Shown: in pieces, positions 20,739-53,628 of the stretch
How the letters are laid out: each line of letters starts with the position of its first letter
Numbering within the stretch: the first letter of the stretch is position 1
Sequence record: OK428535.1
Reading direction: 5' to 3' (one strand)
Length of the DNA: 64,000 bases
Source: Escherichia phage vB_EcoM_Lh1B
Program-made: the position numbers and the translations under genes
Notes under the pieces: generated by a model
Seen by the model: only the letters and a program-made list of their open reading frames with translations
Databases searched by the model: none
What the model was told of the DNA's origin: nothing

Positions 20739-21185
20739 ATGTACATTCTGAATAACGAACTTACTAAGTACGCTAGCAAAAACCCGANTATGATTTNTTT
20801 NCTAATCGTGATGGCGGCCAACAAACAAGACCCTAGCGAATTCACTACTGAGGTCTTCGAAGAGATTATCGCTAACGCCAAAGAAGCCACGTTCCAGACC
20901 ACAGNGCCTACTCGCGACGAGTTCCCCCTAGGTGAAGCCGGCGATGTAATGTTTAACGACATGGTTGCTTCGTACTACATCAATAGACGTGGTATGGAAA
21001 TCGAATACGATGAACTTCCTACTAGCAGCTTTGCTGAAATGATTCGTGATTATCGTCGTCAAGTTGTCTCTGACGATATCGTAAAGAAATACATGGCACA
21101 AATCAGCCCATTCAGTCTTGAATTCGAAAACCGCGCGGTTGCCTTAGCAACACATCGCCTGCGTTTAGAAAAAGAAGTACACTAA
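20739..21185 (+). CDS. Hypothetical protein
   Basis: 148-aa ORF downstream of the repeated promoter-like element; Ns near the 5' end. Confidence 0.55.
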   Translation: MYILNNELTKYASKNPXMIXXLIVMAANKQDPSEFTTEVFEEIIANAKEATFQTTXPTRDEFPLGEAGDVMFNDMVASYYINRRGMEIEYDELPTSSFAEMIRDYRRQVVSDDIVKKYMAQISPFSLEFENRAVALATHRLRLEKEVH

Positions 21186-21246
21186 TAATAACCCGGCGGG
21201 CAAAGTCCCGCCAATCAACCTGCAATCTACAAAAAAGGAATATCCC

Positions 21247-21465
21247 ATGCGCAACCTCTTCTCCAAATCTGAAATCAAACCTGTTGTTGAAACCGCAGCC
21301 AAACGTAAACCTGACANGNNTGANCTGNNGCTGAAAANGTNTGNAGCAGAAGCCAAAGCGTTNCNGNAAACAATGAAAGACGGNGATAAAATGATTGACA
21401 ATGTTGAAGTAACCTACGGTGTTAAAGACCGCCCAAAGAATAACGGCCTCGTGTGGGTCTGTTAA
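21247..21465 (+). CDS. Hypothetical protein
   Basis: 72-aa ORF with AAAGGAA upstream; many Ns in the middle. Confidence 0.4.
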   Translation: MRNLFSKSEIKPVVETAAKRKPDXXXLXLKXXXAEAKAXXXTMKDXDKMIDNVEVTYGVKDRPKNNGLVWVC

Positions 21466-21486
21466 TCGACGATTGAGGATAAAGTC

Positions 21487-21621
21487 ATGAAGAACAAAAA
21501 GCTTCGGCTCCCCTTCTTTTTTTGTTTCCTTTTCTTTTTTGTTTGCTCTTGTTCGGATTCTGGTACGCACTACGCTTTTAATATGCTGGCAGGGGGTCTA
21601 AAAATCTTACGACCTCAATAA
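21487..21621 (+). CDS. Candidate small Phe-rich membrane peptide (44 aa)
   Basis: Hand translation gives MKNKKLRLPFFFCFLFFFVCSCSDSG... with GAGGAT 8 nt upstream. It lies in a T-rich segment that could instead be a terminator tail. Confidence 0.25.
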   Translation: MKNKKLRLPFFFCFLFFFVCSCSDSGTHYAFNMLAGGLKILRPQ

Positions 21622-21643
21622 TCCCTTAACTCGAGTTAACGCG

Positions 21644-22441
21644 ATGTCTTTTACTTCAAAACAGAATCTGCTAAAACTCATCAACGAAGAGAATAAGATA
21701 AGCCCACCGCTTACCTTTGACGATGTTGATATCGGACTGCCGGAGGTTGTGTCAGTAGACGGTCGTGATTCGGAGGTAGTCCTTACCTCGAAGATGCGCG
21801 GTGATGAAGGTACGCAAGTGATTGTGGACTACCATCGTCGTCCATTAGAGGACTACCTTAAAGGCGATGTTGCCTTTGGAGACGAGGACGTGCAAACCAC
21901 GCACGACTTACTCGCGGCGATTAACGAGCGTTTTAATCTGTCTATCTTACCTGAGGATATCGAAGATAACCCCATTGATGGACAGACGCACACAGTCGTT
22001 GCTGTTGAAACTTCCCACGAGTGGCGAAGTCAAGCGGTCATCGAGCTGAAACCTGCTACACCTCTGGCAGAAGTAGTAACCAATACAGAGTTGAGCGGTC
22101 TTCTGTACCCGGATCACCAGGACATCCAGTTGGGTCAGGCGTATATCTATTCGCGTGACATCGATTGTAGCCACATCTCTCGTTTCCTGAGCCTCTTAGC
22201 GGTCGGTATCGAGGTAGATGACACGGCGTTGGCAATCGAACTCAACAAATGTGTTCCTGAGATTTGGGTAGCTGAAGATACCCCATCCCCGTATAACCTG
22301 CGTGGTGCCACTGTCGTATTCGACGGCGTACCTGCAGACTTGCCGGGAGCAAATACGGCGTTCGCGAAAGTCGTGTCAGTGCAACTGACCGATAAATGTA
22401 CGAACTTCCAGGGCAGCCTCAACCTACACTTTAACAACTAG
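21644..22441 (+). CDS. Paralog family A member 1; putative virion/receptor-binding protein
   Basis: First of seven tandem genes. C-terminal CTNFQGSLNLHFNN motif as in A4 and a weaker version of the shared N-terminal module. Confidence 0.7.
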   Translation: MSFTSKQNLLKLINEENKISPPLTFDDVDIGLPEVVSVDGRDSEVVLTSKMRGDEGTQVIVDYHRRPLEDYLKGDVAFGDEDVQTTHDLLAAINERFNLSILPEDIEDNPIDGQTHTVVAVETSHEWRSQAVIELKPATPLAEVVTNTELSGLLYPDHQDIQLGQAYIYSRDIDCSHISRFLSLLAVGIEVDDTALAIELNKCVPEIWVAEDTPSPYNLRGATVVFDGVPADLPGANTAFAKVVSVQLTDKCTNFQGSLNLHFNN

Positions 22442-22451
22442 GAGGGTATAG

Positions 22452-23294
22452 ATGTCTATTTACGATAAGCCCTCGAAAGAGATGTTGTTAGATGCTATTA
22501 ACCGACAGAACGGATTAACGGCCAATCCACTCACATGGGAGCAGGTTGCAACTGGCTTCCCTGAGTCTGTCCAAACGCCTGGCGCTGACCGGAATACGCG
22601 TGTGCTCTTATACGGGTTGAACGGCAAGGGCTACAAAGGCAACGTTACGCTCGAATACGACCGTATCGAAATGGAAATTCTGTTCAGGAACGTAATACCG
22701 GTAGTCGTTGCCGACCCGGTAAATAAACTCTCTGAGTTGTTGCCGTTTCTGAATGCGAAATACGGCTTGTCTTTAGTTGCCGACGATATCGTTGACCAGT
22801 CAGTAAAAGATTTGGGAGAAAGCTGGTTAATCGATGTGACTATTAAGCCTGGTTGCTTGGCCTGGCAAGGTGGTTTCCGTTTACGCTTTGCGAAGTTCTT
22901 CCCGAACTTGGCGGATGTGGTGACGGATGTTGACCTCAGCGCAATTATCGCGCCGTTCGTGGTTGCTAGTAAACCACAGGCTGAGTATGTGGCGTATGGT
23001 TACGATTGGACTGAACTGCAAAAACAGTTCACTACCGATTGGGCTTACAACCGCGCAATCACCGCGGCGGATGTTGAATTGCTTAACGAAGTGGTGCCAT
23101 TAAAGTTTGCATATGTGACGGGGGCGACTGCGCAACCTGAACAAATTGCGCTTCAAGGTGCACGATATATGGGGATAACTTCAGTCACACCGAACGATAG
23201 TTACAACCCCGATTATCAGCGTGTGGCGATTATCAAGCTAGCTGCGGACAGCAACTACGCCGGTAATCTCATCCTTCACTATCTCCCGATATAA
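22452..23294 (+). CDS. Paralog family A member 2
   Basis: N-terminal module LLDAINRQN...DRNTRVLLYGLNGKGYKGNVTLEYDRIEMEILF; GGAGGG Shine-Dalgarno. Confidence 0.75.
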   Translation: MSIYDKPSKEMLLDAINRQNGLTANPLTWEQVATGFPESVQTPGADRNTRVLLYGLNGKGYKGNVTLEYDRIEMEILFRNVIPVVVADPVNKLSELLPFLNAKYGLSLVADDIVDQSVKDLGESWLIDVTIKPGCLAWQGGFRLRFAKFFPNLADVVTDVDLSAIIAPFVVASKPQAEYVAYGYDWTELQKQFTTDWAYNRAITAADVELLNEVVPLKFAYVTGATAQPEQIALQGARYMGITSVTPNDSYNPDYQRVAIIKLAADSNYAGNLILHYLPI

Positions 23295-23304
23295 GGATTT
23301 TGAC

Positions 23305-24150
23305 ATGCCACTTTTAGCCACTGCTGAAAAGATTATTATCGCGGAGGTTAACGTCGAAAACAATCTCGATTTAAAAGTCGAAGATGTGGTTTTCGGTGTC
23401 CCTGCGATTCCGACGTCTGACGAAGACCTGGCAAAAGCCAATGGTCATAACGCGATGGTGCGCATTCAGGCATTGGCCACCGCTAATGCTATCGGTGCCA
23501 CTACCGTGTATTACGATCGTGTTGACTTCGCAGACATGTTTACCGACCCAGACGGGATTCAACCTTTACGTGTTCCTGCACGTCTCGATGCTGTTTACCA
23601 GATGCATGACGTGGTCGGGTTAATTAACCAGTATTACGGTCTCAGTCTTAAACCTGCAGATGTGGTGAATACCGAAATCGACAGGAAGACATGGCGTGTG
23701 GATCTGATTGCCACGCCCACTTCTTTAGGTTGGATAGGGCAACAACAGGTACAGCTGTTACCAGGCGATGCGTTGCTTCCTGCAAACTTCGAACCCTTAA
23801 CAGTAACACCTTACGAGTATCCGTATTTTAACATCAAGGTCGGTCAAGGTGCAGTTTATTCGTATCCCTGGCGCTTTGATAATTTCGCGGAGGAATTTCA
23901 ACGACTAGGTGCTGCGATAACCGCAGAACGTCTGGCACAGATTCTCAAAACGGTCACCGGTGATAACTGGACAACGTACCGTAACCCAATCGACTTTAAC
24001 CTTCGTGAAGCCGTCGTCGTCTATAACGGGCGTAACAAAGCGGAATTACCAACCAACCCAGCAGTCGACAACGTGCTGATTGTGGAGCTGTCGTTGTACT
24101 GTCTGAATTTTGGCGGGCGTTTGTATTTGCACTACAACGACCCTGATTAA
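23305..24150 (+). CDS. Paralog family A member 3
   Basis: C-terminal CLNFGGRLYLHYNDPD motif; tandem position. Confidence 0.7.
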   Translation: MPLLATAEKIIIAEVNVENNLDLKVEDVVFGVPAIPTSDEDLAKANGHNAMVRIQALATANAIGATTVYYDRVDFADMFTDPDGIQPLRVPARLDAVYQMHDVVGLINQYYGLSLKPADVVNTEIDRKTWRVDLIATPTSLGWIGQQQVQLLPGDALLPANFEPLTVTPYEYPYFNIKVGQGAVYSYPWRFDNFAEEFQRLGAAITAERLAQILKTVTGDNWTTYRNPIDFNLREAVVVYNGRNKAELPTNPAVDNVLIVELSLYCLNFGGRLYLHYNDPD

Positions 24151-24171
24151 TCCTGAGTAAAGGAAGTAAGA

Positions 24172-25083
24172 ATGAAACCTTTAAACAAAACGTCCGATCA
24201 GCTGGTTCTGGATTTTATTAATGAGAAAAACCCAGACGCAGAACTGGAACTTTCTAAAATAACGCTCGGCACACCGACCCCTATTATCGATGAAGGTGCC
24301 GATCGCAATACCAGCATGACCCTGACTGCGAAAAAGAACTCCGGGTACATCGGTACTCAGGACGTGACTTATAATCGCCTGGAAGGCGGTGCGCTGTTCC
24401 GNAACGTAACGGCATACCTCGACGTTAAACTGCCGAAAACCACCACAGACCTGCTGACGACCCTGAACACCCAATACGGATTGAAGCTGACCGAAGACGA
24501 TATCGTTCCGGCGGCTATTCCGGAAAATACCAACCCGCCGCTGACTAACCCGAACGATCCGGACCCAGCACCGGTTGACCATGTCATTACCTTCAAAGAA
24601 GACTGCTACGCTTATCTGGGCAGCATCCCGGTTAAAATCGGTGCTAAGCCTCAGGTTGGTGAACGTCTGAGTCTGGTGGTAACACAAACCAAGCTCGACG
24701 GCCTGGTTTACCCAGATGGTCCAAGCGAAGCGAAGGGTCAGGGCTACATCTACTCTTACGGTGTAGACTGCACAGCAATCGCAGCATTCCTGAAAGTACA
24801 GGCGAAAGGTGTTATCGCTGGCGACTCTGCATTCCCGGTTGAGCTGAATAAAGTTGTGCCGGAACTGTGGGTTGCATCTGATGAGCCTGCGGATTATAAC
24901 CTGAAAGGTGCTAACGTGTTGTACGTTGGTTCTACTACTGACGATGGCACTGCTTCAGGCGACGATCCTAAGAAACCGGTTGAAGGTGCAAACACTGCTT
25001 ACAACCAGGTTCTGCTGCTGCAGCTGGATGACACTCTGTGCACCAACTTCCAGGGCGTCATGTACCTGCACTTTAATGCCTAA
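24172..25083 (+). CDS. Paralog family A member 4
   Basis: N-terminal module LVLDFINEKNP...DRNTSMTL...GYIGTQDVTYNRL; C-terminal half collinear with A1 (CTNFQGVMYLHFNA). Confidence 0.75.
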   Translation: MKPLNKTSDQLVLDFINEKNPDAELELSKITLGTPTPIIDEGADRNTSMTLTAKKNSGYIGTQDVTYNRLEGGALFXNVTAYLDVKLPKTTTDLLTTLNTQYGLKLTEDDIVPAAIPENTNPPLTNPNDPDPAPVDHVITFKEDCYAYLGSIPVKIGAKPQVGERLSLVVTQTKLDGLVYPDGPSEAKGQGYIYSYGVDCTAIAAFLKVQAKGVIAGDSAFPVELNKVVPELWVASDEPADYNLKGANVLYVGSTTDDGTASGDDPKKPVEGANTAYNQVLLLQLDDTLCTNFQGVMYLHFNA

Positions 25084-25092
25084 TTAGGCCTC

Positions 25093-25137
25093 GCTGGGAG
25101 GAGGAAATCCTCCTCCTGGCTACTCCTTTCTTTTTTG
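25093..25137 (+). terminator. Hairpin terminator or attenuator inside the paralog array
   Basis: ggaggagg-aaat-cctcctcc hairpin followed by a T-run, between A4 and A5. Confidence 0.5.
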
Positions 25138-25152
25138 GCCGAGGAGGCTATT

Positions 25153-25992
25153 ATGGCTTTATATAGTCTGTCTCAGCGACAATATCTGTACGATGCGATT
25201 AATGCCGAAAACCCGGATGCTGTTCTACCGATGGGTTTAGACAATGCTATCATCGGTACGCCGAAAGCAATCACACCGACAGCAAGCGGTGCCAATACTG
25301 AGATTATCATTCGTGGTCGTCAAGGTCGTGGCTATATCGGTCCTCAGACGTTCCGTTATAAGCGCTTGTCGCTGAACGACTTATTTAAGAACATGACACC
25401 TCAGGTAACTGCACCGAATGCCTACGGTTGGTTGAACGTGGAGTCGAAACGTACTGCGTTTGCGCAGAACCTGAACGGTCGTTATGGATTAAACCTGGTT
25501 GCAGACGATATCCCAGAACAATACGTTTATCTGAACGTAAACAACACGATGCGTATTAACGCTAGCTGTATCCAATACACTGGCAGCATCACCTTTATGT
25601 CTATCCGGGGTAAGAATAGTCTCGAAGACCTCGTGGTAAACGACATCTTGTCGGCTTTGAACCACCCTGCAGCAGCAAGCACTGGTAAGAAATACATGGG
25701 CTTCTTGACGTACGGGGAAGACTTTACTGATGAAGTGCAGGTTATGGCCTCGTTTAAGAACGGGCGAATGGACGTAGGAAGTAACTTTGATTTGGGTTAC
25801 ACGTCCAATCTGATGGCCACATTGGTCGCACGTGGGGTACCGTCGTTTGATCCGACGAACTGCACAATTACCCGCTACAAAACGAGTGAGTTGGCGACCG
25901 CCAATAAAGCGTACGATAACGTATTGCTGATTACCGGCATTCAGAACGACCCGAAAGTAATCGGCGAGTGTATGTTGCACTACAACAACTAG
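25153..25992 (+). CDS. Paralog family A member 5
   Basis: ATG at 25153 lies 6 nt after GAGGAGG; the track's TTG start is 25135. N-terminal module and C-terminal CMLHYNN. Confidence 0.75.
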   Translation: MALYSLSQRQYLYDAINAENPDAVLPMGLDNAIIGTPKAITPTASGANTEIIIRGRQGRGYIGPQTFRYKRLSLNDLFKNMTPQVTAPNAYGWLNVESKRTAFAQNLNGRYGLNLVADDIPEQYVYLNVNNTMRINASCIQYTGSITFMSIRGKNSLEDLVVNDILSALNHPAAASTGKKYMGFLTYGEDFTDEVQVMASFKNGRMDVGSNFDLGYTSNLMATLVARGVPSFDPTNCTITRYKTSELATANKAYDNVLLITGIQNDPKVIGECMLHYNN

Positions 25993-26002
25993 GAATTAGC
26001 GA

Positions 26003-26890
26003 ATGGCTATTTATCAACCTTCTAAAGACGTCCTGTTGGCAGCAGTGAACGCACAGAACTCGCTTGCTGTTAAGATGACTGACATCATCTGGTCCTCGCC
26101 AAAGGACATCCGTGGTACGGAGAAGGAAACGCTGACTAACCGTAACACGCAAATTAAAATTACGGCAGATGGGGTAACGGGCTCTACCTGGTCGGGTAAG
26201 AAAAATGTCTTCTACAACCGCATGAAGGTCGAAGACTTGTTAGTGTTGATTGGTGACACGTTGGCGATCGGCCCATCCAACGAAACCTTGTATGCGGCCA
26301 TTCCTGGACTGAACCAACGTTACGGTTTTGTTCTGGAAGAAGCTGACCTGCAGGACGCAGATATCGAATGGAACGGTGATAAGACCGAAGGTACTGTGCG
26401 TGTTGTTGCACATCCAGAGTCTATCGGTTGGGTTGGACAGGCGACATTTAAAGTCGTGAAAGGCGATGAGTCGTTAGTCTCTGCAGTCACCACTAACGTC
26501 CTGACCGGTCTGAAATACCCGAACGGTCAGATGGGTTCCGAAACCGTTACTGCGGTCATTGCAGAGGTTTATTCCTACCCGTACAACTTCACTAAGTACC
26601 GAGATGCTCTGCTGGCATACAAGCCGGGNATTCTGTCTGGNCAGCCGTTAACGGATATGGTTAACCTGCTGAAAGATATCACGGGTACTGCATGGGTAGC
26701 GACCACTTCCGCTTCCTACGGTTTGGCGGGCGCGGAGGTTATCAGCGTTGGTCTGAATGACCCTGTTGCAATGCCGACAAACGCGAAGTACAAGTATGCG
26801 CTGGTGTTGAAACTGCCTGTTACCTGTACCACCATCGTCGGAACGTTGTATCTCCAGTTCAACGATCTGGACGATCCAAGCGAGGTATAA
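26003..26890 (+). CDS. Paralog family A member 6
   Basis: N-terminal module LLAAVNAQN...NRNTQIKI...; C-terminal LYLQFNDLDD. Confidence 0.75.
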   Translation: MAIYQPSKDVLLAAVNAQNSLAVKMTDIIWSSPKDIRGTEKETLTNRNTQIKITADGVTGSTWSGKKNVFYNRMKVEDLLVLIGDTLAIGPSNETLYAAIPGLNQRYGFVLEEADLQDADIEWNGDKTEGTVRVVAHPESIGWVGQATFKVVKGDESLVSAVTTNVLTGLKYPNGQMGSETVTAVIAEVYSYPYNFTKYRDALLAYKPXILSXQPLTDMVNLLKDITGTAWVATTSASYGLAGAEVISVGLNDPVAMPTNAKYKYALVLKLPVTCTTIVGTLYLQFNDLDDPSEV

Positions 26891-26893
26891 TTG

Positions 26894-27721
26894 ATGATCA
26901 ACTATGCTAAGCCGTCAAACGAGTTGGTCTTTGACCTCATTAACCGGGATAACCCAAACCTACCTATTAAAGCGTCGCCGGCAAACTGCTACGTGGAGAA
27001 AGTGACGCAGGTTCCCGTTAATGCAGCTTCCAACAACCGCAATACGTCGGCACGCTTGCGCGGTATTCAGGGTTCCGGATTTCGAGACGCAATCACCGTT
27101 TACTACGACCGTGTGAACTTAGCGCGGTTATTGCCGTGGGGTCCTTCTGTCCAGGCGCAGTTCGTCACGTTTGACGCGCCCAACCTCCACTCAGCCTTTT
27201 CGGTGCTCTTGGATACTTACGGAGTAAACTTCTCCGCAATCGATATCCAAAACTACTCACTGTTTGGTGCCAATACCCCAAATTACACCAATACACAGAC
27301 CATTGCAGCGCTATCGACATCTCCGGCTTATATCGGTTCTGCGACGTTGCGTTATAACCGTGGTTTACCGGTACTAGACACTTCGGTGAAATCAGATGTC
27401 TTGAATGCGATTCAAGAGCCTATTTCACCGTCTCTCGGTAAGAAGTGTATTGATTTGTTGACGTACGGTATTGACTTTACCGCGTATAAAAACCTACTGA
27501 CAGTAGATGCTTCTGGCCTACCGCAGTGGGCTGGTTTGCGTAAGGTGTTGGATGACCTGGGTATTCCGAACTACGCGGGGCCACTGAACAGTAACACCGT
27601 TCAGGATGTGCCGACTTCCACCGCTCAGTTCGCTAACAAATCGTACGACCGCGTGGTTATCCAAACGGGCATCGATGAGGAAGGCGTGAAAGGCGTGGCG
27701 TACTACCACTATAACAGCTAA
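26894..27721 (+). CDS. Paralog family A member 7
   Basis: MINYAKPSNELVFDLINRDNP...NRNT...YYDRVNLARLL; C-terminal YYHYNS. ATG at 26894; the track's TTG is 26891. Confidence 0.75.
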   Translation: MINYAKPSNELVFDLINRDNPNLPIKASPANCYVEKVTQVPVNAASNNRNTSARLRGIQGSGFRDAITVYYDRVNLARLLPWGPSVQAQFVTFDAPNLHSAFSVLLDTYGVNFSAIDIQNYSLFGANTPNYTNTQTIAALSTSPAYIGSATLRYNRGLPVLDTSVKSDVLNAIQEPISPSLGKKCIDLLTYGIDFTAYKNLLTVDASGLPQWAGLRKVLDDLGIPNYAGPLNSNTVQDVPTSTAQFANKSYDRVVIQTGIDEEGVKGVAYYHYNS

Positions 27722-27726
27722 GTGTA

Positions 27727-27753
27727 GGGGCTCTTCGGAGCCCCATCTTTTGG
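27727..27753 (+). terminator. Hairpin terminator or attenuator
   Basis: ggggctc-ttcg-gagcccc hairpin followed by a short T-run. Confidence 0.55.
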
Positions 27754-27768
27754 CGATGCGGAGTCCCT

Positions 27769-29181
27769 ATGCTATTTTACTCGAAGGAGTCGGCACTGCT
27801 TGTATACGACCAAGTCAATCGGGATAATCCTGATTTAGTTGTTAAGCTGACGCCGGCTATCGCTGCTTTAACCAGCGGCCCAACTTCAGTTACGTTAAAC
27901 CAGCGTAACACCAAAGCTGTTTTCACCGGGTATCCAGGGACAGGTGTACAAGGTAATGTTACCGTGTACTACGACCGGATTAACCTGGCCACTTTATTTA
28001 ATTTTGTGCCGACTGTGGCTATCAAAGATACAGTCTTAACGGTACGAGACGCGCTACCTGCAATAAACGACGCATTGGGGCTTACATTAGTTGCTTCTGA
28101 TTTGCAGTCACCTGACGCAAGTTTACCTAAACCGAGCGCTTCGCCGCAGACGTTGAAATTAAATATCTCAGGTAATTGCCCTGCGTTTACAGGCAGCTTA
28201 ACGATACGTTATACCGTCCCGAGTGGTGCAATTTACCCCGATTCTGGACCTGGCCCTAAAACGTTGCTGCAAGGTAACACTATCGCGGGTTATTTCGGAA
28301 CAACCACAATTGCAGAGTTGTTTACACACTCTCAACTTCTTAATGCCACTATATCGGCCGGTGCGTTACCACCGGTACATTCTGGTGCCGAAGGTTGGTA
28401 CAAGTTCTTTTACCAGGGTAGGGTTATTTACCTCCCGATTAGTCCTGTCGCTAGCTCCATCTCCTGGAATACGTTATATACAAACGGACTCGTTTACGGA
28501 ACAGACGATAATGGTAAATACCCTGCGGCGACGCCCGTTAACCAGGGACGCATCATTAGCTTTACAGGCGCAGACAACAAAAGGTTTTACTTCCGCGTTC
28601 GTCTACCTAGTGCCGGGAAAGACCCATACGTCAGCGGCACCCCAACTGCCGCTGAGTTAGCAGGTAGTGAGTTTGAGATGTTCAACTTTCTGTATAATGG
28701 AACGTGGGACAAACCGATTAACAGTTACTGGACGCTGTTCTGTTTATTGAAAGATACACTGAACACCAACGTCGCCAATCATCGCATGGCGACGTTGTCT
28801 GGAGCCAGTTGGACAAACTTAGGAAAATCATCGAGCGCAGGCAACTACTACTGGTTCCCGGTGCTAGAGTTGGTGGATAAGTCCACAGTTACCTTGGGTT
28901 TAGAAGATATCCATGGTGCGGTAGATTACAGTCTCCAACCGNNCAGNGTGTCCGCAGAAAANNCNTTTAGNCTCANNCCNTTGGTNCTCGGTAATCCAGA
29001 TACTACCGATTTCGAACCGGTAGTTGTTACTTCAGAAAACAGTTTCGCACNGCATCCGCCTGCTTTAATGCTGCCGAAGACAGTCGACTTCCAACCCATT
29101 GCGGCTACCGCTGAAATGTATACGCCACCCGACAAGACATCGTTAACGTCACTTAACGGTGAACTGGACGGCTTTAAGTAG
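27769..29181 (+). CDS. Paralog family B member 1 (A-type N-module, shared central module, NGELDGF C-terminus)
   Basis: N-terminus LVYDQVNRDNP...NQRNT...YYDRINLATLF; central PDSGPGPKTLLQGN..GYFG and W.KF..GR module; ends LNGELDGFK. Confidence 0.75.
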   Translation: MLFYSKESALLVYDQVNRDNPDLVVKLTPAIAALTSGPTSVTLNQRNTKAVFTGYPGTGVQGNVTVYYDRINLATLFNFVPTVAIKDTVLTVRDALPAINDALGLTLVASDLQSPDASLPKPSASPQTLKLNISGNCPAFTGSLTIRYTVPSGAIYPDSGPGPKTLLQGNTIAGYFGTTTIAELFTHSQLLNATISAGALPPVHSGAEGWYKFFYQGRVIYLPISPVASSISWNTLYTNGLVYGTDDNGKYPAATPVNQGRIISFTGADNKRFYFRVRLPSAGKDPYVSGTPTAAELAGSEFEMFNFLYNGTWDKPINSYWTLFCLLKDTLNTNVANHRMATLSGASWTNLGKSSSAGNYYWFPVLELVDKSTVTLGLEDIHGAVDYSLQPXXVSAEXXFXLXXLXLGNPDTTDFEPVVVTSENSFAXHPPALMLPKTVDFQPIAATAEMYTPPDKTSLTSLNGELDGFK

Positions 29182-29192
29182 AGGTATCATCC

Positions 29193-30191
29193 ATGTCTTT
29201 TACTTTGCGTTGGAAAAATCCAAACGTAATCTCTACGGTAGTAAAAATCTACCGTGACGTTAAAGATATCACACCGAGCGCTTTGCCTGAACCGATTGCA
29301 ACGCTCTCAAATGGCGAGACAGAATGGCGTGATACCACCGCCGCACCAGGCGCAACCTATTATTACCTTCTGACGGTAACCGCCAACGGTAAAACAGTGG
29401 CATCGTCTAGCCAGAAATACACCATTGAGATAAAGCGTGGGATTGGCCCAATGACTATTCTAAACGGTAACGACCGTTTAGGGTTTATGGGTGCGGTTCC
29501 TTACGACGAACAATGGCTTCCGTCGCAAATGCCACCTGCATTTTTGGCGATGTTCCCTAATCTATTAACCGATCGTGTGGCGTTGTATAAATTTACCCGA
29601 AACGGGAAAATCTATTACATGCTATCTAACACGTCGCAGTTCCCGAATACGCCTGTGGACTGGGCTTCCCTCTATCAAGCTGGTTTAGTCTATGGTACGG
29701 GCGATGCTGGTCCAGAGAACGGCCATGGAACGCTACCGGCCACTCCACAAGACGCTAAGATAGTCCACAAAGGGGATACGTACATTATGCGTCTTCCTCG
29801 CGGCCTGACGACGTCTAGCGAGCCTCCTGCGTATCCTTTCGTAGCTGACTATAATGGGAAAACCCATGATGAAATCGCTTCTCTAACCAACCCGTGTGAG
29901 TATAACGATTTACTTTACACGATGGTTAACGAGGTGCCGAAGAAACAGCGTTGGGCTAACTGGGCAACGTACAGTTATAATTATCTGGGGCAGGGTACTT
30001 TGGGAACCTCGGCAACGTATTTCGGCGGTGGTGTTCTCTGTATGGAACACGACACCACGGAAGACCGTGTGCTCCATCGTGGTATTTTTAACAATGCCGG
30101 TGGAACACCCGTATCCGCGATTCAGCGTATAAACTATTTATCACCCACCACGAAAGGGCGTTACTACCCTATCTTTGAACTGGTTGAGTAA
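29193..30191 (+). CDS. Paralog family C member 1 (FN3-like N-terminus plus shared central module)
   Basis: N-terminus VKIYRD...LPEPIATLSNGETEWRDTTAAPGATYYYLLTVTANG looks like a fibronectin-III/Ig-like fold; GTGDAGPENGHG central motif. Confidence 0.7.
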   Translation: MSFTLRWKNPNVISTVVKIYRDVKDITPSALPEPIATLSNGETEWRDTTAAPGATYYYLLTVTANGKTVASSSQKYTIEIKRGIGPMTILNGNDRLGFMGAVPYDEQWLPSQMPPAFLAMFPNLLTDRVALYKFTRNGKIYYMLSNTSQFPNTPVDWASLYQAGLVYGTGDAGPENGHGTLPATPQDAKIVHKGDTYIMRLPRGLTTSSEPPAYPFVADYNGKTHDEIASLTNPCEYNDLLYTMVNEVPKKQRWANWATYSYNYLGQGTLGTSATYFGGGVLCMEHDTTEDRVLHRGIFNNAGGTPVSAIQRINYLSPTTKGRYYPIFELVE

Positions 30192-30200
30192 GGGGCAGTC

Positions 30201-31124
30201 ATGACTATACGGTTAAGCTGGCCGTCTCAAGCCAGTAAAGGTCTTACCGCGATTGAAATCTATCGCAAAGAAGGCTGGAACGCAACTATAGACGTTTACA
30301 ATCCAGGCACGCCCCACGCAACTTTATCTGGCAACGCGGTAGAGTTTGTAGATAATATCGATACCCTGACGAAGAATACAACCTATCGTTACTGGGTAGC
30401 TGCTGTAAAAGACAGTGAACGACTTATCGGCAATCCGATTACGCAAGGATTCTATCCGGACACCGGGCCGGGTCCGCAAACTATTTTGCGTGGTGACTGG
30501 GCTTCAGGTTATTTCGGTACAGTACCGAATACAGAGTTCTTTAATACAGCCGAGTTAAAACTCATGTTAACTGCGCAGCAGGGAAACATGTTTATCTACG
30601 ACCCTCAGGAATGGCACAAGTTTATTTTCCGTGGGCGAATTGTGTTCTTCCCAGCGTCGATGCATTCGAAAACCAACTCGGTACAAATGGCGTATCAGTA
30701 CGGTATGATGTACGGGACCGATGATGTCGGAAGTATTGTTCCGCTGGGAGCCACGGCCACCAAACAAGATTGTAAGGTCACGAAGGATGGTCGTACGTAC
30801 CGTATCCGGTTACCTTACGCAGTCCCGTACGATGCGACTCTCTCAGGACAGGATTACAACAACGGCGAATGGCGAAACACAATGGGCCGTTTGTATCCTG
30901 TCAGTGCACAGTTCCCAGCCCTTGGTCTTGGTGCCATCGATTCAATACCGGCGCAAGGTTCAACTTCCCAGCCTAACGAAACAGGTGCTGCTGCATTAGC
31001 CCCTTTATGGAGCAACAACATTTTCGCTTATGCGTACGGTTATGCGCCTATAGGGATTAGTAACACCTCAGGTGTCGGGAACTCGACCACGATGTTCTTT
31101 GCTTTTGAATTAGTCTTACCGTAA
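30201..31124 (+). CDS. Paralog family C member 2
   Basis: IEIYRKEGWNATIDVYNPGTPHATLSGN...TTYRYWVAAVKD then PDTGPGPQTILRGDWASGYFG and WHKFIFRGR module. Confidence 0.7.
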   Translation: MTIRLSWPSQASKGLTAIEIYRKEGWNATIDVYNPGTPHATLSGNAVEFVDNIDTLTKNTTYRYWVAAVKDSERLIGNPITQGFYPDTGPGPQTILRGDWASGYFGTVPNTEFFNTAELKLMLTAQQGNMFIYDPQEWHKFIFRGRIVFFPASMHSKTNSVQMAYQYGMMYGTDDVGSIVPLGATATKQDCKVTKDGRTYRIRLPYAVPYDATLSGQDYNNGEWRNTMGRLYPVSAQFPALGLGAIDSIPAQGSTSQPNETGAAALAPLWSNNIFAYAYGYAPIGISNTSGVGNSTTMFFAFELVLP

Positions 31125-31137
31125 CGGAGTAAAAGCC

Positions 31138-32634
31138 ATGGGGTTGTATACAGAACCTTCAATGGAACTGCTCTGCCAACAAATTGTGCGTGACAATCCC
31201 GGTTTAGCAGGAAAAATCACCGCTGACTCCATTGGGGTCAGGGGNGTTCCTGTTGCGAAAAACGTTAACGGACGAAACACACAGATTACGTTGGTAGGAA
31301 AACCCGGTAAAGGATTTGCTGGGGAAATAACGGTATATTACGACCGGTTGAATCTGGCCAGTCTATTTAAGTCTGGCCCAAATATGGTGAGTATTCCACG
31401 TAGCGNACAAACCCATGCGGAAGNGTTACCGGCGTTCAATGAATTGAACGGGTTNAACTTAACCGCGAGTGATATCACCAGTCCAAACGTTGCATTAATG
31501 AAATACGCTACGCCGGAAACTGTAACTCTGACGGCGCACGCTAACTCCTTGTGTTATACCGGGTCATGCAAGATGACCTATGTTTACGAACCGATTGCGA
31601 TGTATCCGAAGTCGGGTCCTGGGCCAAAAGGATTAATGGCTGGTAATGAGTTATACGGATTCTTTGGGCTGGTAAGCGCGGAAGAGTTATTCACATCTGA
31701 TGAAATGGTGTATGCCCTCTATAACGGCACCACCTGGCCTAACCGCTACGCTATCAAGTGGCTCAAATTCTTTCTGAATGGGGNGGTAGTGTTTGTTCCG
31801 ACCCGTGCGNTTTGCAACGTTACCTGGGCAGACCTGTACAACAAGGGTGCAATATTTGATTCCGGAGACGCAGGACCTCGCCCGAAGTCGACTTACACAC
31901 CTGTCGATGTTGAACAGTTGAAATACATGGTAAAACGGGATGATGAAGGAACGCATTATTTCAGAATGTCTATCCCGTATTACACCGAGAACGCCGCCGC
32001 GCCTGATTGGAGTAAACCGCCGTCAATCACCTCTATCCTGTCACTGACCAGCAAATTGGGGTCGGTGAACGTATATGGGGAGTGGGGAACTCTTAGCACG
32101 ACTGATGCTAACTTCCTGGATTACGTGTGGTTACGACACCAGTTCGGTGCCGACCAAGCGTATTACCAGTCTATCAGTGGGAGCTATCGTTCATACACCT
32201 ACATCTACACCTCTTCTGGCTTTTGGCCAATCCTGGAGATGTTTGATGTTGCCAATGAACCTGTGCCGTTGATTGACGAAGGTGCAGAATTAACATGGGC
32301 ACCGTCCGTGGTTACTCTGACGGACATCGACCAAAATGAATCGCTTCGTGTGGTGCCTATTACGGAAACCTCCGCTGCAGCGAATCCACGTCCGTTAGTT
32401 TTCAACACCGACAACACCGAAACTGCCACCCCTGCCTGGGTGCGGGAAACGTCATCAGACTCACCACGTCCTCTGCTTGCCACGACGGACAATGATGAAC
32501 GTGCATATTCCGTCGCGGTAACAGGCATGGCTAGCGTTAAGATTAGACCGATTATTCTCACGACTGACCAAATCGCCCAACCTTCAAAAATTACTCTGGG
32601 CGATACTAACGGTGAGTTGGATGGATTCCAATAA
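31138..32634 (+). CDS. Paralog family B member 2
   Basis: N-module LLCQQIVRDNP...GRNTQI...YYDRLNLASLF; PKSGPGPKGLMAGN..GFFG; ends TNGELDGFQ. Confidence 0.75.
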   Translation: MGLYTEPSMELLCQQIVRDNPGLAGKITADSIGVRXVPVAKNVNGRNTQITLVGKPGKGFAGEITVYYDRLNLASLFKSGPNMVSIPRSXQTHAEXLPAFNELNGXNLTASDITSPNVALMKYATPETVTLTAHANSLCYTGSCKMTYVYEPIAMYPKSGPGPKGLMAGNELYGFFGLVSAEELFTSDEMVYALYNGTTWPNRYAIKWLKFFLNGXVVFVPTRAXCNVTWADLYNKGAIFDSGDAGPRPKSTYTPVDVEQLKYMVKRDDEGTHYFRMSIPYYTENAAAPDWSKPPSITSILSLTSKLGSVNVYGEWGTLSTTDANFLDYVWLRHQFGADQAYYQSISGSYRSYTYIYTSSGFWPILEMFDVANEPVPLIDEGAELTWAPSVVTLTDIDQNESLRVVPITETSAAANPRPLVFNTDNTETATPAWVRETSSDSPRPLLATTDNDERAYSVAVTGMASVKIRPIILTTDQIAQPSKITLGDTNGELDGFQ

Positions 32635-32646
32635 GAGGTAACGACA

Positions 32647-33636
32647 ATGGCTTTTACAATTCGTTGGNCGAACAATAACCCTGGGGCTTCGACCGTGAAG
32701 CTGTACCGCGACACCAAACCTCTGGTGCGTACGGCATTACCTGAACCCCTGGCAACGTTCACTAACGGGGAAACTGAGTATACTGACCGAACAGCGATAC
32801 TGGGGACAACGTATTACTACATGACCACTGTGACAGTGGGAAGCCGAACACTGTTCAGTCCGCAGAAATCAATTCTAATTCAGAACCGTCGCGGTATCGG
32901 CATCGTGGCTCCACAGTACGGTGATGACCGCTTTGCGTATTACGGGTACGTGGCGTACGGNGAATTACCTAGNGCGGGNGATTTTCCGCCAGGGTTTGNG
33001 GCCCTTTCTGGATACGACCCAACTGTTAAGCCGGGCTTGATGAAGTTCCAGCTAGACGGTAAAATTCTGTATCTGTTTAGTGGTCTTCGTGTGAACGGCA
33101 ACACGCTGTATAGCCGTGATGCGATTTATAACGCGGGTTTGCTGTACGGTGTGGCGGGACCTGGTCCGGAAGGCGGTCATGGCGATTTACCTGACGTTGA
33201 CCAGGCTGGGGAGTTTACGTGGTTGGGTGACCGCTATCGGATGCGCCTGCTGCGCGGTTTAACACTCGACAGTGAAAGCCCGGTCATGACACTCGATGCA
33301 CAGTGGGACGGTAAACTCCATGACGCGTCACCGTATACTGCCGATAGCGAATACAACCGACTCATCTATGGGATAAGTAGCTGGTTCCCAGAAAAGAAAA
33401 AAGTGATGTCCCTGATAAAGTGGTCGAACTCCAGCATATTTGGAAATGGATNNNTGGTGGCAGGCCGTGGGGCGCATTGTCAGGAGTTTGACCCAGAACN
33501 TAAGTTGGGGCTGACGCGCGGATTGGCGGCGGTGGATTCCACTGATACCGTGGATAACCTCCAGCGTATACAACATGTCCCTGGTGCGACCGTGGGCGGT
33601 ATTTGGATTCCAGTAATCGAGCTTATCGAGGATTAA
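32647..33636 (+). CDS. Paralog family C member 3
   Basis: Collinear with C1 (VKLYRD...LPEPLATFTNGETEYTDRTAILGTTYYYMTTVT...GVAGPGPEGGHG). Confidence 0.7.
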   Translation: MAFTIRWXNNNPGASTVKLYRDTKPLVRTALPEPLATFTNGETEYTDRTAILGTTYYYMTTVTVGSRTLFSPQKSILIQNRRGIGIVAPQYGDDRFAYYGYVAYXELPXAXDFPPGFXALSGYDPTVKPGLMKFQLDGKILYLFSGLRVNGNTLYSRDAIYNAGLLYGVAGPGPEGGHGDLPDVDQAGEFTWLGDRYRMRLLRGLTLDSESPVMTLDAQWDGKLHDASPYTADSEYNRLIYGISSWFPEKKKVMSLIKWSNSSIFGNGXXVAGRGAHCQEFDPEXKLGLTRGLAAVDSTDTVDNLQRIQHVPGATVGGIWIPVIELIED

Positions 33637-33638
33637 TC

Positions 33639-34538
33639 ATGCCTATTACATTACACTTTGCACAACGGAAGCCACAGGCGCTCGATAACATCGAAATCTA
33701 TCGCAAGACGCCGGGCAACGCCACAATTGATGTTAATGCACCGGGAACGCCTCTGGCAACCCTTCCGGGTGACGCTACATCGTACGAAGACAACGCTGTG
33801 GAAAACAACACCACTTACCGTTATTGGATAGCTGCGGTTAAAGACGGTGAGCGTGTCTTCAANACCCCNNCCNCCCAAGGGTTTTTTTTANACNCCGGGN
33901 CNGGCCCCCANAAANTGTTATACGGNGNCNGGCACNCNGGATACTTTGGAANANNAACNCCAGNAGANTTATTCACTAACACGGAACTGAACGGCCTCGT
34001 GGTGAATATGTTCAGTTCCGCCGTTGGTGCCTGGCATAAATTCATTTACAAAAACCGTATTCTGTTTATGTCCGATAACTCGATAATAAACGCTAGCCCG
34101 CAGTTCATTTATAACCAGGGGATGATGTACGGCCAGGATGGCAATGGATATGTACCGGGCTGGGCTACTGCACGTAACCAACGGCGCACGGTGACGAAAA
34201 ACGGTTACGAATACGTGGTGCGCTTGCCGTATTTGTTCGACTACAAATTCTGGACGTCTTACGTTGGAAGCGGTAACACTGAGTTGTATCTCGACGGTGA
34301 GTGGTTTAACACCTTCGCGCGCCTGTACAACNACAGGGGGCGGTTTCCGCGCTTTTACGAACTTCCGGTCGGTTCAATCGATTCGGTTACTGCCCAACAA
34401 TCTGCATTCTTTGCGGCTATGAATAACACGTCCAGTCAGTGGTACAACCGTCCACCTTACCCTGAGTCGCCGTCGTGGAGTAACTACGGTACCACTACAA
34501 TACGCTCCATTGCGGTACTTGAACTCGTTCTGCCTTAA
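33639..34538 (+). CDS. Paralog family C member 4
   Basis: Collinear with C2 (IEIYRKTPGNATIDVNAPGTPLATLPGD...TTYRYWIAAVKDGERVF; WHKFIYKNR module). ATG at 33639 follows GAGGA; heavy N content at 33863-33968. Confidence 0.65.
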   Translation: MPITLHFAQRKPQALDNIEIYRKTPGNATIDVNAPGTPLATLPGDATSYEDNAVENNTTYRYWIAAVKDGERVFXTXXXQGFFLXXGXGPXKXLYXXXHXGYFGXXXPXXLFTNTELNGLVVNMFSSAVGAWHKFIYKNRILFMSDNSIINASPQFIYNQGMMYGQDGNGYVPGWATARNQRRTVTKNGYEYVVRLPYLFDYKFWTSYVGSGNTELYLDGEWFNTFARLYNXRGRFPRFYELPVGSIDSVTAQQSAFFAAMNNTSSQWYNRPPYPESPSWSNYGTTTIRSIAVLELVLP

Positions 34539-34585
34539 CAGGAGACTTCATGGGATNGNATAGCGNACTTCACCATAACAGCTAA

Positions 34586-34618
34586 AAATAGGCCCTTCAG
34601 GGCCTATTTTCTTTTTTA
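34586..34618 (+). terminator. Rho-independent terminator
   Basis: aataggccc-ttca-gggcctatt hairpin followed by a T-run. Confidence 0.7.
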
Positions 34619-34628
34619 GGACGTTGCA

Positions 34629-35948
34629 ATGATCAACTATAACAAACCTGTCATGCAGCTGGTTTGGGATCAGATTAATCGTGATAACCCGCAGCTCAAG
34701 AAACCACTCAACGCAACCAACGTGGCGTTATTACAAGGTCCTTTAACCAATGCCTTGCGCGATGGCCGCAACAGCCGTATAGTGGTAAACGGATTACAGG
34801 GTGGCGGTTACAGCGGTAAGATGGACATCTACTACGACCGCTTAAACCTTTCGCAGTATTTTAAAGGCGTCAGCGTACCGGTTAAAGTACCTTATCGGGC
34901 GACGTCCTACCGCGACATCATCGACCGGATTTCCGCAGCTTGTGGGCTGGTGCTTACTGCTGACGATTTAACGTATCCTGACAGCCAGTTTGCAATGATC
35001 ACTGTGGCAACGGGCGATCGGACGGTGGCGATTAAATCGGATAACCCCGCATTCACGGGTCACATTCCTATTAGCTTTATTCGTGAAGAGCCCAGCTTTG
35101 CCGACTTGTACCACACCACCGAAACCGGAGCTTGGGAACCCATGGATGTTTACAGCACGGTCTATCGACTCGACTGGAGCATGTACACCCAACAGATAAT
35201 CAATATCCCGATGGGTACCCCGCTGCGACTAAACAGTAACTCGTACATGACCCAGTTCATCGCGGCGCTGTCGGCATGGTCGGGCATCCCGTTCACTATC
35301 GGTAATGCTGCTACTGATAACCCGTATGACCTCTATGGGTATGTCGCTACACGCAATAACAACCCAGGCTTAGACCCTGATATGCGTGGGGAGTACAATT
35401 ACTGCGTGAAGTTGACGCCACCTGAGGATATGGGTAATCTCCGCCGTCCGTTCTTCTTGCACTTTGGTCCGAAAAATAACGTGGCCNATTTGGCGCAGGA
35501 AAAGGANGNCGAACGTTATGCGCGTTACATGAGGTTCCGGGAAACCAGCCCAAATTCGATGAGCGTCACGTTGTATCAAAACGAGTACGTGTTGACTCGG
35601 GCAGAATCGCCTGAAACTGCGGATGATTTAACGGGTTCCCCGTATGGCACTCGATACTGTACCGGGAGTATTCGACGGCTGATGCAACACGCGTTTCCGA
35701 CCGAAGAGATGTTCCAAGAAAGTATTGCTAACCGGCGTCGGGTACTGTACCACACTGCTTACACCACCACGACATCAGCTATTACTTACCAGGGACTATA
35801 CCGTAACGGATACCAATCCAAACAAATGACGAGCCTCTACTCGAATTACTGTAACTATTTCATCTATTACGACCCAAGCAAAGGCGGCTATATGGTCTAC
35901 AGTCCATATAGCAAAACCGCCCCGGTCCCTTGGTATCCACCGCTATAG
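34629..35948 (+). CDS. Paralog family D member 1 (A-type N-module, distinct C-terminus)
   Basis: MINYNKPVMQLVWDQINRDNP...GRNSRIVV...YYDRLNLSQYF; C-terminus ...SPYSKTAPVPWYPPL shared with the next gene. Confidence 0.75.
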   Translation: MINYNKPVMQLVWDQINRDNPQLKKPLNATNVALLQGPLTNALRDGRNSRIVVNGLQGGGYSGKMDIYYDRLNLSQYFKGVSVPVKVPYRATSYRDIIDRISAACGLVLTADDLTYPDSQFAMITVATGDRTVAIKSDNPAFTGHIPISFIREEPSFADLYHTTETGAWEPMDVYSTVYRLDWSMYTQQIINIPMGTPLRLNSNSYMTQFIAALSAWSGIPFTIGNAATDNPYDLYGYVATRNNNPGLDPDMRGEYNYCVKLTPPEDMGNLRRPFFLHFGPKNNVAXLAQEKXXERYARYMRFRETSPNSMSVTLYQNEYVLTRAESPETADDLTGSPYGTRYCTGSIRRLMQHAFPTEEMFQESIANRRRVLYHTAYTTTTSAITYQGLYRNGYQSKQMTSLYSNYCNYFIYYDPSKGGYMVYSPYSKTAPVPWYPPL

Positions 35949-35962
35949 ACTAAGGTGTCACC

Positions 35963-53533: not shown

Positions 53534-53536
53534 TGC

Positions 53537-53575
53537 AAACACTCCTAATCTGTAATAAAACGGAGACCGCCCTCC
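53537..53575 (-). terminator. Intra-operon hairpin between two fibre genes
   Basis: accgcccttcc...gggagggcggt stem followed by ctccgttttatt on the minus strand, between the 1376-aa stop and the 1742-aa start. Confidence 0.4.
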
Positions 53576-53628
53576 CAATAACGGAAGGGCGGTTTACCTA
53601 CGGACTACCCGCCCGTAGGCAGTCCGTC

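Follow-up and report, generated by a model that had tools for sequence, protein, structure and literature searches.

Gene content of the array

We examined an array of six genes in a 64,000-nucleotide stretch (the window) of the genome of Escherichia phage vB_EcoM_Lh1B (OK428535.1). The array consists of two diverged copies of a three-gene cassette, each made up of one gene designated B followed by two designated C. It was first noticed in a reading of the sequence alone (the sequence-only reading), which described the order B1-C1-C2 at 27769-31124 as repeated in B2-C3-C4 at 31138-34538. Open reading frames (ORFs) at exactly these coordinates were recovered for all six genes, all on the plus strand, and the matches between cognate pairs described below lie far beyond chance. 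The window is from a Seoulvirus, a jumbo phage of the SPN3US group, and over its whole 6770 bp this region is 96-97% identical in DNA to that of Salmonella phage SPN3US. Full-length matches to the region in GenBank, at 94-97% DNA identity, were to SPN3US and over 30 further Seoulvirus genomes. The six genes are orthologues of SPN3US gp145-gp150, numbered after record JN641803 (locus tags SPN3US_0145-0150), with order and position kept and protein identities of 91-98%. They are as follows, the first C gene of a cassette being named Calpha and the second Cbeta by position.

27769-29181, plus strand: B1, 470 amino acids (aa), gp145 orthologue, unit type I; DUF7941 module (residues 1-150), predicted lectin-like core (151-370) and disordered repeat tail ending NGELDGFK
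29193-30191, plus strand: C1, 332 aa, gp146 orthologue, Calpha of unit I; FN3 and core domain
30201-31124, plus strand: C2, 307 aa, gp147 orthologue, Cbeta of unit I; FN3 (residues 1 to about 80) and core (80-307)
31138-32634, plus strand: B2, 498 aa, gp148 orthologue, unit type IIa; architecture like that of B1, tail with PRPL..TDN repeats
32647-33636, plus strand: C3, 329 aa, gp149 orthologue, Calpha of unit IIa
33639-34538, plus strand: C4, 299 aa, gp150 orthologue, Cbeta of unit IIa

For C4 the ATG at 33639 is the start annotated in relatives; the mechanical ORF begins upstream at TTG 33603. B2 is 98% identical to SPN3US gp148. C1 is 96% identical to gp146, matches phrog_1062 (E 1.6e-57) and falls inside the Calpha clade (bootstrap 100). 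The name "glycosyl hydrolase" given to C genes in two GenBank records (L002, MT679221) is unsupported by any Pfam or PHROG match.

Two diverged copies of one three-gene block

Comparison of the window proteins by BLASTP paired each gene with its counterpart in the other unit: B1 with B2 (28% identity over 507 columns, E 1e-56), C1 with C3 (38%, E 2e-61) and C2 with C4 (44%, E 3e-56). Matches between non-cognate C proteins were C1/C2 at E 1e-12, C1/C4 at E 1e-9 and C3/C4 at E 8e-5, and among these proteins C2 and C3 gave no significant match. Global protein identity was 33% for B1/B2, 38.5% for C1/C3 and 46% for C2/C4, as against 25-31% for non-cognate C pairs, which upholds the earlier statement that the pairs are collinear in protein. 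The accompanying claim of clear divergence in DNA also held, with a codon-aligned DNA identity between units of 44-53%. A megablast of unit 1 against unit 2 gave no match, and at E below 1 merely five short patches of 72-80% were found.

The sequence-only reading took this layout for an old block duplication followed by diversification and not for an assembly artefact. Given DNA identity this low, read collapse or a mis-join can be excluded, and the layout is identical in the independent GenBank genomes noted above. It is highly improbable that the repeated order arose by assembly error or by independent duplications of single genes. The units recur with a period of 3369 bp between conserved motifs, the order is conserved in each phage examined, and the three gene trees are congruent (see below). 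The one comparison leaning toward single-gene events is within the N-terminal module of B, where B1 is hardly nearer to B2 (40%) than to A7 (37%), the last of seven upstream genes of an A family, and the B1 and B2 modules together score 37-40% against A7. Over whole proteins the outcome that would have told against the sequence-only reading, B1 no closer to B2 than to the A family, does not occur: B1 matches B2 along its full length, and A-family members only as far as residue ~150 (best A7, E 5e-21). Measured against SPN3US and Escherichia phage EC001, the ratio of nonsynonymous to synonymous substitution rates (dN/dS) was 0.08-0.62 across the six genes, all of which are therefore under purifying selection.

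Separately, dS of C2 (30201-31124) to both SPN3US and EC001 was 0.25, compared with 0.02-0.07 in its neighbors. This suggests that C2 may have been imported from a more distant lineage or may carry a recombinant patch.

Ancestry of the cassette

Neighbor-joining trees of the B and of the C genes were built with SPN3US, SPAsTU, JN03 and SPLA5c (Seoulvirus), ChrisDB (Machinavirus), phiEaH2 (Erskinevirus) and CR5 (Derbicusvirus). B, Calpha and Cbeta each formed a separate clade across six to seven phages, so that genes group by position as the sequence-only reading would have it, and all three gene trees gave the same unit types I, IIa, IIb, III and IV. Bootstraps of the unit-type clades were mostly 83-100, with type IV weaker. 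Every SPN3US-like phage has type I as its first unit, which in the window is unit 1; type IIa comprises window unit 2 and the second units of SPN3US and JN03; type IIb comprises SPN3US unit 3, ChrisDB unit 2 and SPAsTU unit 2; the remaining units are of types III and IV. The sole mismatch among the trees was the single unit of CR5, whose B gene grouped weakly with type IV and both of whose C genes grouped with type III. Since the trees are congruent, whole units and not single genes were copied.

The block duplication proved to be old, as had been proposed. Orthologues of unit I in Erwinia phages, which belong to other genera, are 45-69% identical to it, compared with 28-44% between the window's own two units, and the I/II duplication thus predates those genera. 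In a tree of 54 core domains, the cores of B, of first-position C and of second-position C each formed one clade (bootstrap 33, 100 and 50, respectively), so the triad existed before any unit was copied. Class-specific profiles found two triads in PhiEaH1, one in RSL2 and one looser triad in PhiPA3. In all of these the first gene has an N-terminal B-type core and no DUF7941 module, and is followed by two FN3-plus-core genes, so the DUF7941 fusion is specific to the SPN3US-like clade. These comparisons place the origin of the cassette far before the I/II duplication.

A profile of the core matched 1642 representative clusters in a library of 1.84 billion proteins, 961 of them at E 1e-10 or better. 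Family architectures were FN3 plus core, core alone, DUF7941 plus core, and giant chains with 2-10 cores. The giants also carry Laminin_G_3, Kelch, DUF285 (BspA-type) and glycine-rich domains, a company that by these domain assignments is adhesin-like, and two of them are encoded on contigs of 250-275 kb.

Copy number and recombination junctions

The number of cassettes varies among relatives: CR5 has one; the window, EC001 and SPLA3 have two; SPN3US and most Seoulvirus genomes, phiEaH2 and JN03 have three; and ChrisDB has four. Alignment of the window to SPN3US is unbroken to 34568 and restarts after a jump of 3456 bp, the two parts overlapping by 9 nt (ATAGCGnAC, 34560-34568). The 3456-bp deletion removes the third cassette of SPN3US (type IIb) from the window, with its breakpoint at this 9-bp microhomology, and leaves a scar in which a decayed DUF7941 3' relic sits just 5' of a terminator-like hairpin.

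34550-34585, plus strand: scar of the deletion, where 19 nt from the start of gp151, the lost third B gene, run into what is left of the 3' end of a decayed DUF7941 gene
34585-34610, plus strand: strong terminator-like hairpin and T-run closing the B-C-C array, with CTTTTTT after its 11-pair stem

Over 16.6 kb EC001 aligns to the window without indels at 96.5% identity, and its junction is identical, so the deletion is real and shared and is not an assembly error. Contractions were found in three further isolates. In SPLA3, the 5' end of gp151 has recombined with a homologous 5' remnant behind gp153. In JN03, an internal 2.87-kb deletion of unit IIb has left 392 nt and 123 nt of the unit ends. 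In SPLA5c, an unequal crossover joined gp149 and gp152 at their one ~74% identical patch. These three events are independent, and with the deletion in the window and EC001 they give four independent junctions in all. The array grows and shrinks by unequal and microhomology-mediated recombination between repeated gene ends. All the features of a tandem array shaped by unequal exchange were present: the units are collinear, the trees agree, and relatives carry alleles of different copy number whose junctions record recombination.

In JN03 (L011 9499-12917), a type IV cassette replaces unit IIb together with gp154 and gp155, and by this comparison the 3' end of the array is evidently a site of cassette exchange within one genus. 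Behind the last cassette of SPN3US lies a 30-codon relic (L001 19151-19243) whose 5' end is that of a type IV B gene and which is flanked 3' by the last part of a full-length DUF7941 gene now decayed; SPLA5c carries a longer, 91-codon mosaic of the same relic (L010 9425-9700). The short ORF behind gp153 in SPN3US is nearly identical to the JN03 type IV B gene for ~66 nt, and because this is a remnant of a type IV B gene, the ancestor had at least four units. What looked like a ~240-bp insertion in SaP7 and SPFM19/21/22 was rejected, being merely a second BLAST piece that extends into the third B gene.

Domain architecture of the B and C proteins

The B proteins consist of the N-terminal DUF7941 module (residues 1-150), a core of ~220 residues (151-370) and a disordered repeat tail, and the C proteins of an FN3 domain followed by a core running from residue ~80 to the end; alignment shows the core to be common to B and C. 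Pfam PF25613 (DUF7941) matched B1 at 110.6 bits and B2 at 99.5 bits (cut-off 27), in both cases over profile positions 1-153 of 276 only, and did not match C1-C4. The linker and C-terminal globular domain of DUF7941 were thus not found in B1 or B2 by Pfam. We considered whether the core is homologous to this missing part, as both begin with a YPD-G motif, and rejected the idea at an hhalign probability of 0.04.

In structural models, the N-terminal module of B is predicted to have the globular fold seen in phiKZ gp127 (PDB 9XQD) and the N-terminus of C a beta-sandwich fold of the FN3 type. The core, which carries the motif GPGP-x(5)-G-x(5)-GYFG and a terminal hydrophobic strand (...P-V-L-E-L-V), probably adopts a C-type-lectin/FGE-like fold. 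Searches of the PDB by sequence only, with B1, C1 and family profiles, returned nothing past one weak FN3 match. The B tails are degenerate repeats of ~26 residues whose number differs between isolates, and nearly all those examined end NGEL(D/N/S/T)GF, with one-residue departures in JN03 B1 (NDELDGF) and JN03 B3 (NGELLGF). Tail length was seen to change by whole repeats, with one gained in JN03 B1 (L011 2153-3643) and one lost in SPLA5c B2 (L010 6002-7420).

The modeled fold would place the core beside known C-type-lectin-fold binders (Bordetella phage Mtd, Treponema TvpA, Thermus TaqVP and FGE-like domains), with which it has no sequence similarity. Diversity here is generated by gene duplication and by gain and loss of cassettes and not by targeted mutagenesis. 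The fold matches to Mtd, TvpA and TaqVP prompted us to consider retroelement-type hypervariation, which we rejected: positions 21000-39000 of the window, which was not searched for reverse transcriptase, held no template/variable repeat pair and just short repeats of conserved motifs.

Flanking genes

The array lies between genes encoding full-length DUF7941 proteins.

21644-27721, plus strand: A1-A7, seven tandem full-length DUF7941 genes (~280 aa; SPN3US gp138-144)
27727-27744, plus strand: G+C-rich hairpin then T-rich tail between A7 and B1, a 7-pair stem with 6 G-C pairs, by consensus match only
34629-35948, plus strand: D, gp154, 439 aa, full DUF7941 plus an additional C-terminal domain
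35963-38131, plus strand: E, gp155, 722 aa, PF25613 at 83.5 bits and PF05268 at 62.1 bits

A4 and A7 match PF25613 end to end (285 and 293 bits). The hairpin at 27727-27744 is likely a terminator closing the A array. Gaps between the B and C genes are 2-14 nt, and terminator-like hairpins occur solely at 27727-27744 and 34585-34610, that is, at the array borders; both cassettes therefore look like a single transcription unit and are probably transcribed as one. The E protein has two stretches like the DUF7941 N-terminus followed by a glycine-rich adhesin domain of the T4 gp38 type (PF05268), and over the final ~110 residues it is similar to the C-terminal end of the gp154 orthologue (29% identity).

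Further along, on the minus strand at 48350-61485, lie three giant paralogous genes (1742, 1376 and 1237 aa) corresponding to SPN3US gp168-170, the published paralog family C, candidate baseplate or tail-fiber proteins related to phiKZ gp131. Two adjacent minus-strand genes at 42838-45073 correspond to the SPN3US radical SAM superfamily genes gp163 and gp164, which stand next to this locus also in phiEaH2 and CR5. Scattered through the window are 259 N, frequently grouped in small clusters (e.g., 28942-28986, 33863-33968 and 37598-37676). These N were considered as markers of hypervariable sites and rejected as such, as only 4 of 49 regional N sites were polymorphic among five relatives versus 8.5% of other sites; they look like sequence ambiguity and not biology.

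Particle association and proposed function

The six genes belong to a published family of virion paralogs in a well-studied phage genus. SPN3US paralog family B comprises gp83, gp138-154, gp161 or gp160/161, and gp237; it ranges in size from 2 to 20 members between phages, and its members were termed head proteins with no function assigned (Ali et al. 2017, PMC5694885). SPN3US itself has three cassettes to the window's two. Proteomics of purified SPN3US particles detected gp145-153 at spectral counts per kDa of about 1-4 each, comparable in magnitude to the 12-copy portal (Scheuch et al. 2023, PMC10052503 supplement). From near-identity to SPN3US, we take the products of the window phage to be present in its virion as well.

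Structural studies of distant homologues point elsewhere in the particle. DUF7941 proteins of chimalliviruses include phiKZ gp126, gp127 and gp143 and Goslar gp22 and gp23; B shares only their N-terminal module, having a predicted lectin-like core and a repeat tail in place of the linker and C-terminal domain, and DUF7941 is wholly absent from the C proteins. In the phiKZ atlas, the N-terminal domain of gp127 is modeled at the end of the gp139 band on the outer baseplate (PMC13250141, PDB 9XQD). Goslar gp22, the only member for which this has been shown, forms filaments in vitro, and the module is proposed to polymerize head to tail; some DUF7941 members carry carbohydrate-binding, glycosidase or leucine-rich-repeat domains, and a baseplate-anchored "fiber cloud" has been proposed, although the Goslar baseplate itself showed no density for DUF7941 (bioRxiv 10.64898/2026.04.21.720040). 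Proteomics thus places the family on the head, while the structure of a distant homologue places it on the baseplate, and the SPN3US proteins differ from those of phiKZ and Goslar in being head-associated by mass spectrometry.

We give about an even chance to the reading that the two ancient paralogous copies encode virion-borne, lectin-like proteins that bind ligands, probably sugars. The three products of one cassette would assemble into a cognate hetero-oligomer, as suggested by conservation of the triad in distant genera, its co-duplication, the congruent trees and the comparable abundance of the products. The N-terminal module of B, and perhaps its tail too, may tether this oligomer to a DUF7941 scaffold on the particle, leaving lectin-like surfaces exposed that could bind ligands on the host surface. 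Cassettes copied as whole blocks and then diverged would yield a set of different binding specificities, and several cassettes would broaden the range of ligands recognized. The gp38-type adhesin domain on the neighboring DUF7941 protein gp155 points the same way, toward ligand recognition. A precedent for cognate hetero-oligomers is found in the same phages: the tail-fiber paralogs gp131-gp135 of phiKZ (SPN3US paralog family C, gp168-170) are likewise a tandem set, and their diverged members build hetero-oligomeric fibers (PMC13250141). They are unrelated to B and C in sequence and fold and are clearly tail proteins by mass spectrometry.

Three observations weigh against the ligand-binding reading. 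In tailless 255(am107) particles gp138-155 are undiminished, with a head-to-virion ratio of 0.9-1.7, which does not fit the baseplate-anchored model drawn from phiKZ and Goslar (PMC10052503). Fused multi-core proteins, which we considered as evidence of a three-subunit complex, have 2-10 cores whose classes (B, Calpha, Cbeta) follow no set order; this favors cores acting in multiples, though not specifically a complex of three subunits. Finally, the loss of unit IIb in several isolates shows that at least that unit is dispensable for growth on the isolation host.

The particle data also bear on two other explanations. The proteins might be purely structural head components, as capsid decoration or as internal or ejected proteins, that have no part in host recognition, with duplication reflecting architectural redundancy of a very large capsid. 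We consider this somewhat unlikely. It agrees with the classification by Ali et al. (PMC5694885) and with gp138-155 being as abundant in tailless particles as in wild type, where gp168-170, sheath, tube and tape measure drop 20-200-fold and gp155 is kept on the heads (PMC10052503). However, the N-terminal module of B has the fold placed on the phiKZ outer baseplate, folds of the FN3 and lectin-like kinds, like the gp38 adhesin domain of the sister protein E, are usual in binding proteins that lie exposed, and no family member is among the listed substrates of the prohead protease, unlike the usual ejection proteins (PMC5694885). DUF7941 proteins also self-assemble into filaments, and so could co-purify with heads. 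Such co-purification is central to the alternative that B and C are subunits of a baseplate-anchored DUF7941 fiber cloud as proposed for Goslar, with their presence on tailless SPN3US heads an artefact. We think this unlikely, even though the outer peripheral baseplate tip is where the phiKZ gp127 domain is modeled (9XQD), Goslar gp22 forms filaments, and some Goslar DUF7941 proteins are fused to carbohydrate-binding domains. A near-constant head-to-virion ratio for 18 proteins, gp138-155, in triplicate SPN3US measurements is hard to obtain from loose contamination, and the Goslar baseplate lacks DUF7941 density.

A bolder form of the ligand-binding reading is that the triad is a cognate hetero-oligomeric lectin-like adhesin held by DUF7941 on the capsid and not the tail, the array being a library of swappable specificities reshuffled by unequal recombination. 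We regard this as quite unlikely, and return to it below for what it would imply.

Implications for the phage family

The duplication is real and ordinary in kind. What is new here is to see these genes as cassettes, to trace how deep the ancestry of the cassette goes, to assign folds and to recognize natural alleles with two, three and four cassettes; PMC5694885, PMC10052503 and the DUF7941 papers were not found to describe the B-Calpha-Cbeta cassette, its duplication as a block, the folds or the copy-number dynamics. About 18 neighboring SPN3US-type genes (gp138-155) encode particle proteins with no assigned role, and two recent structural studies disagree with two proteomic studies on the location of the DUF7941 family. 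Once nine of these genes are seen as one ancient triad in three copies, a confusing set of paralogs becomes a unit that can be tested. This triad has been repeatedly lost and recombined among near-identical isolates from different hosts, and a single cassette could therefore be deleted or swapped and adsorption and host range measured. Natural two-cassette alleles are already available in the window phage, in EC001, which was isolated on E. coli, and in SPLA3. If the triad does form a capsid-borne adhesin, reshuffling of cassettes would alter the hosts or surfaces to which the particle adheres first, and the array would represent a head-borne form of host recognition distinct from both tail fibers and Hoc-type decoration.

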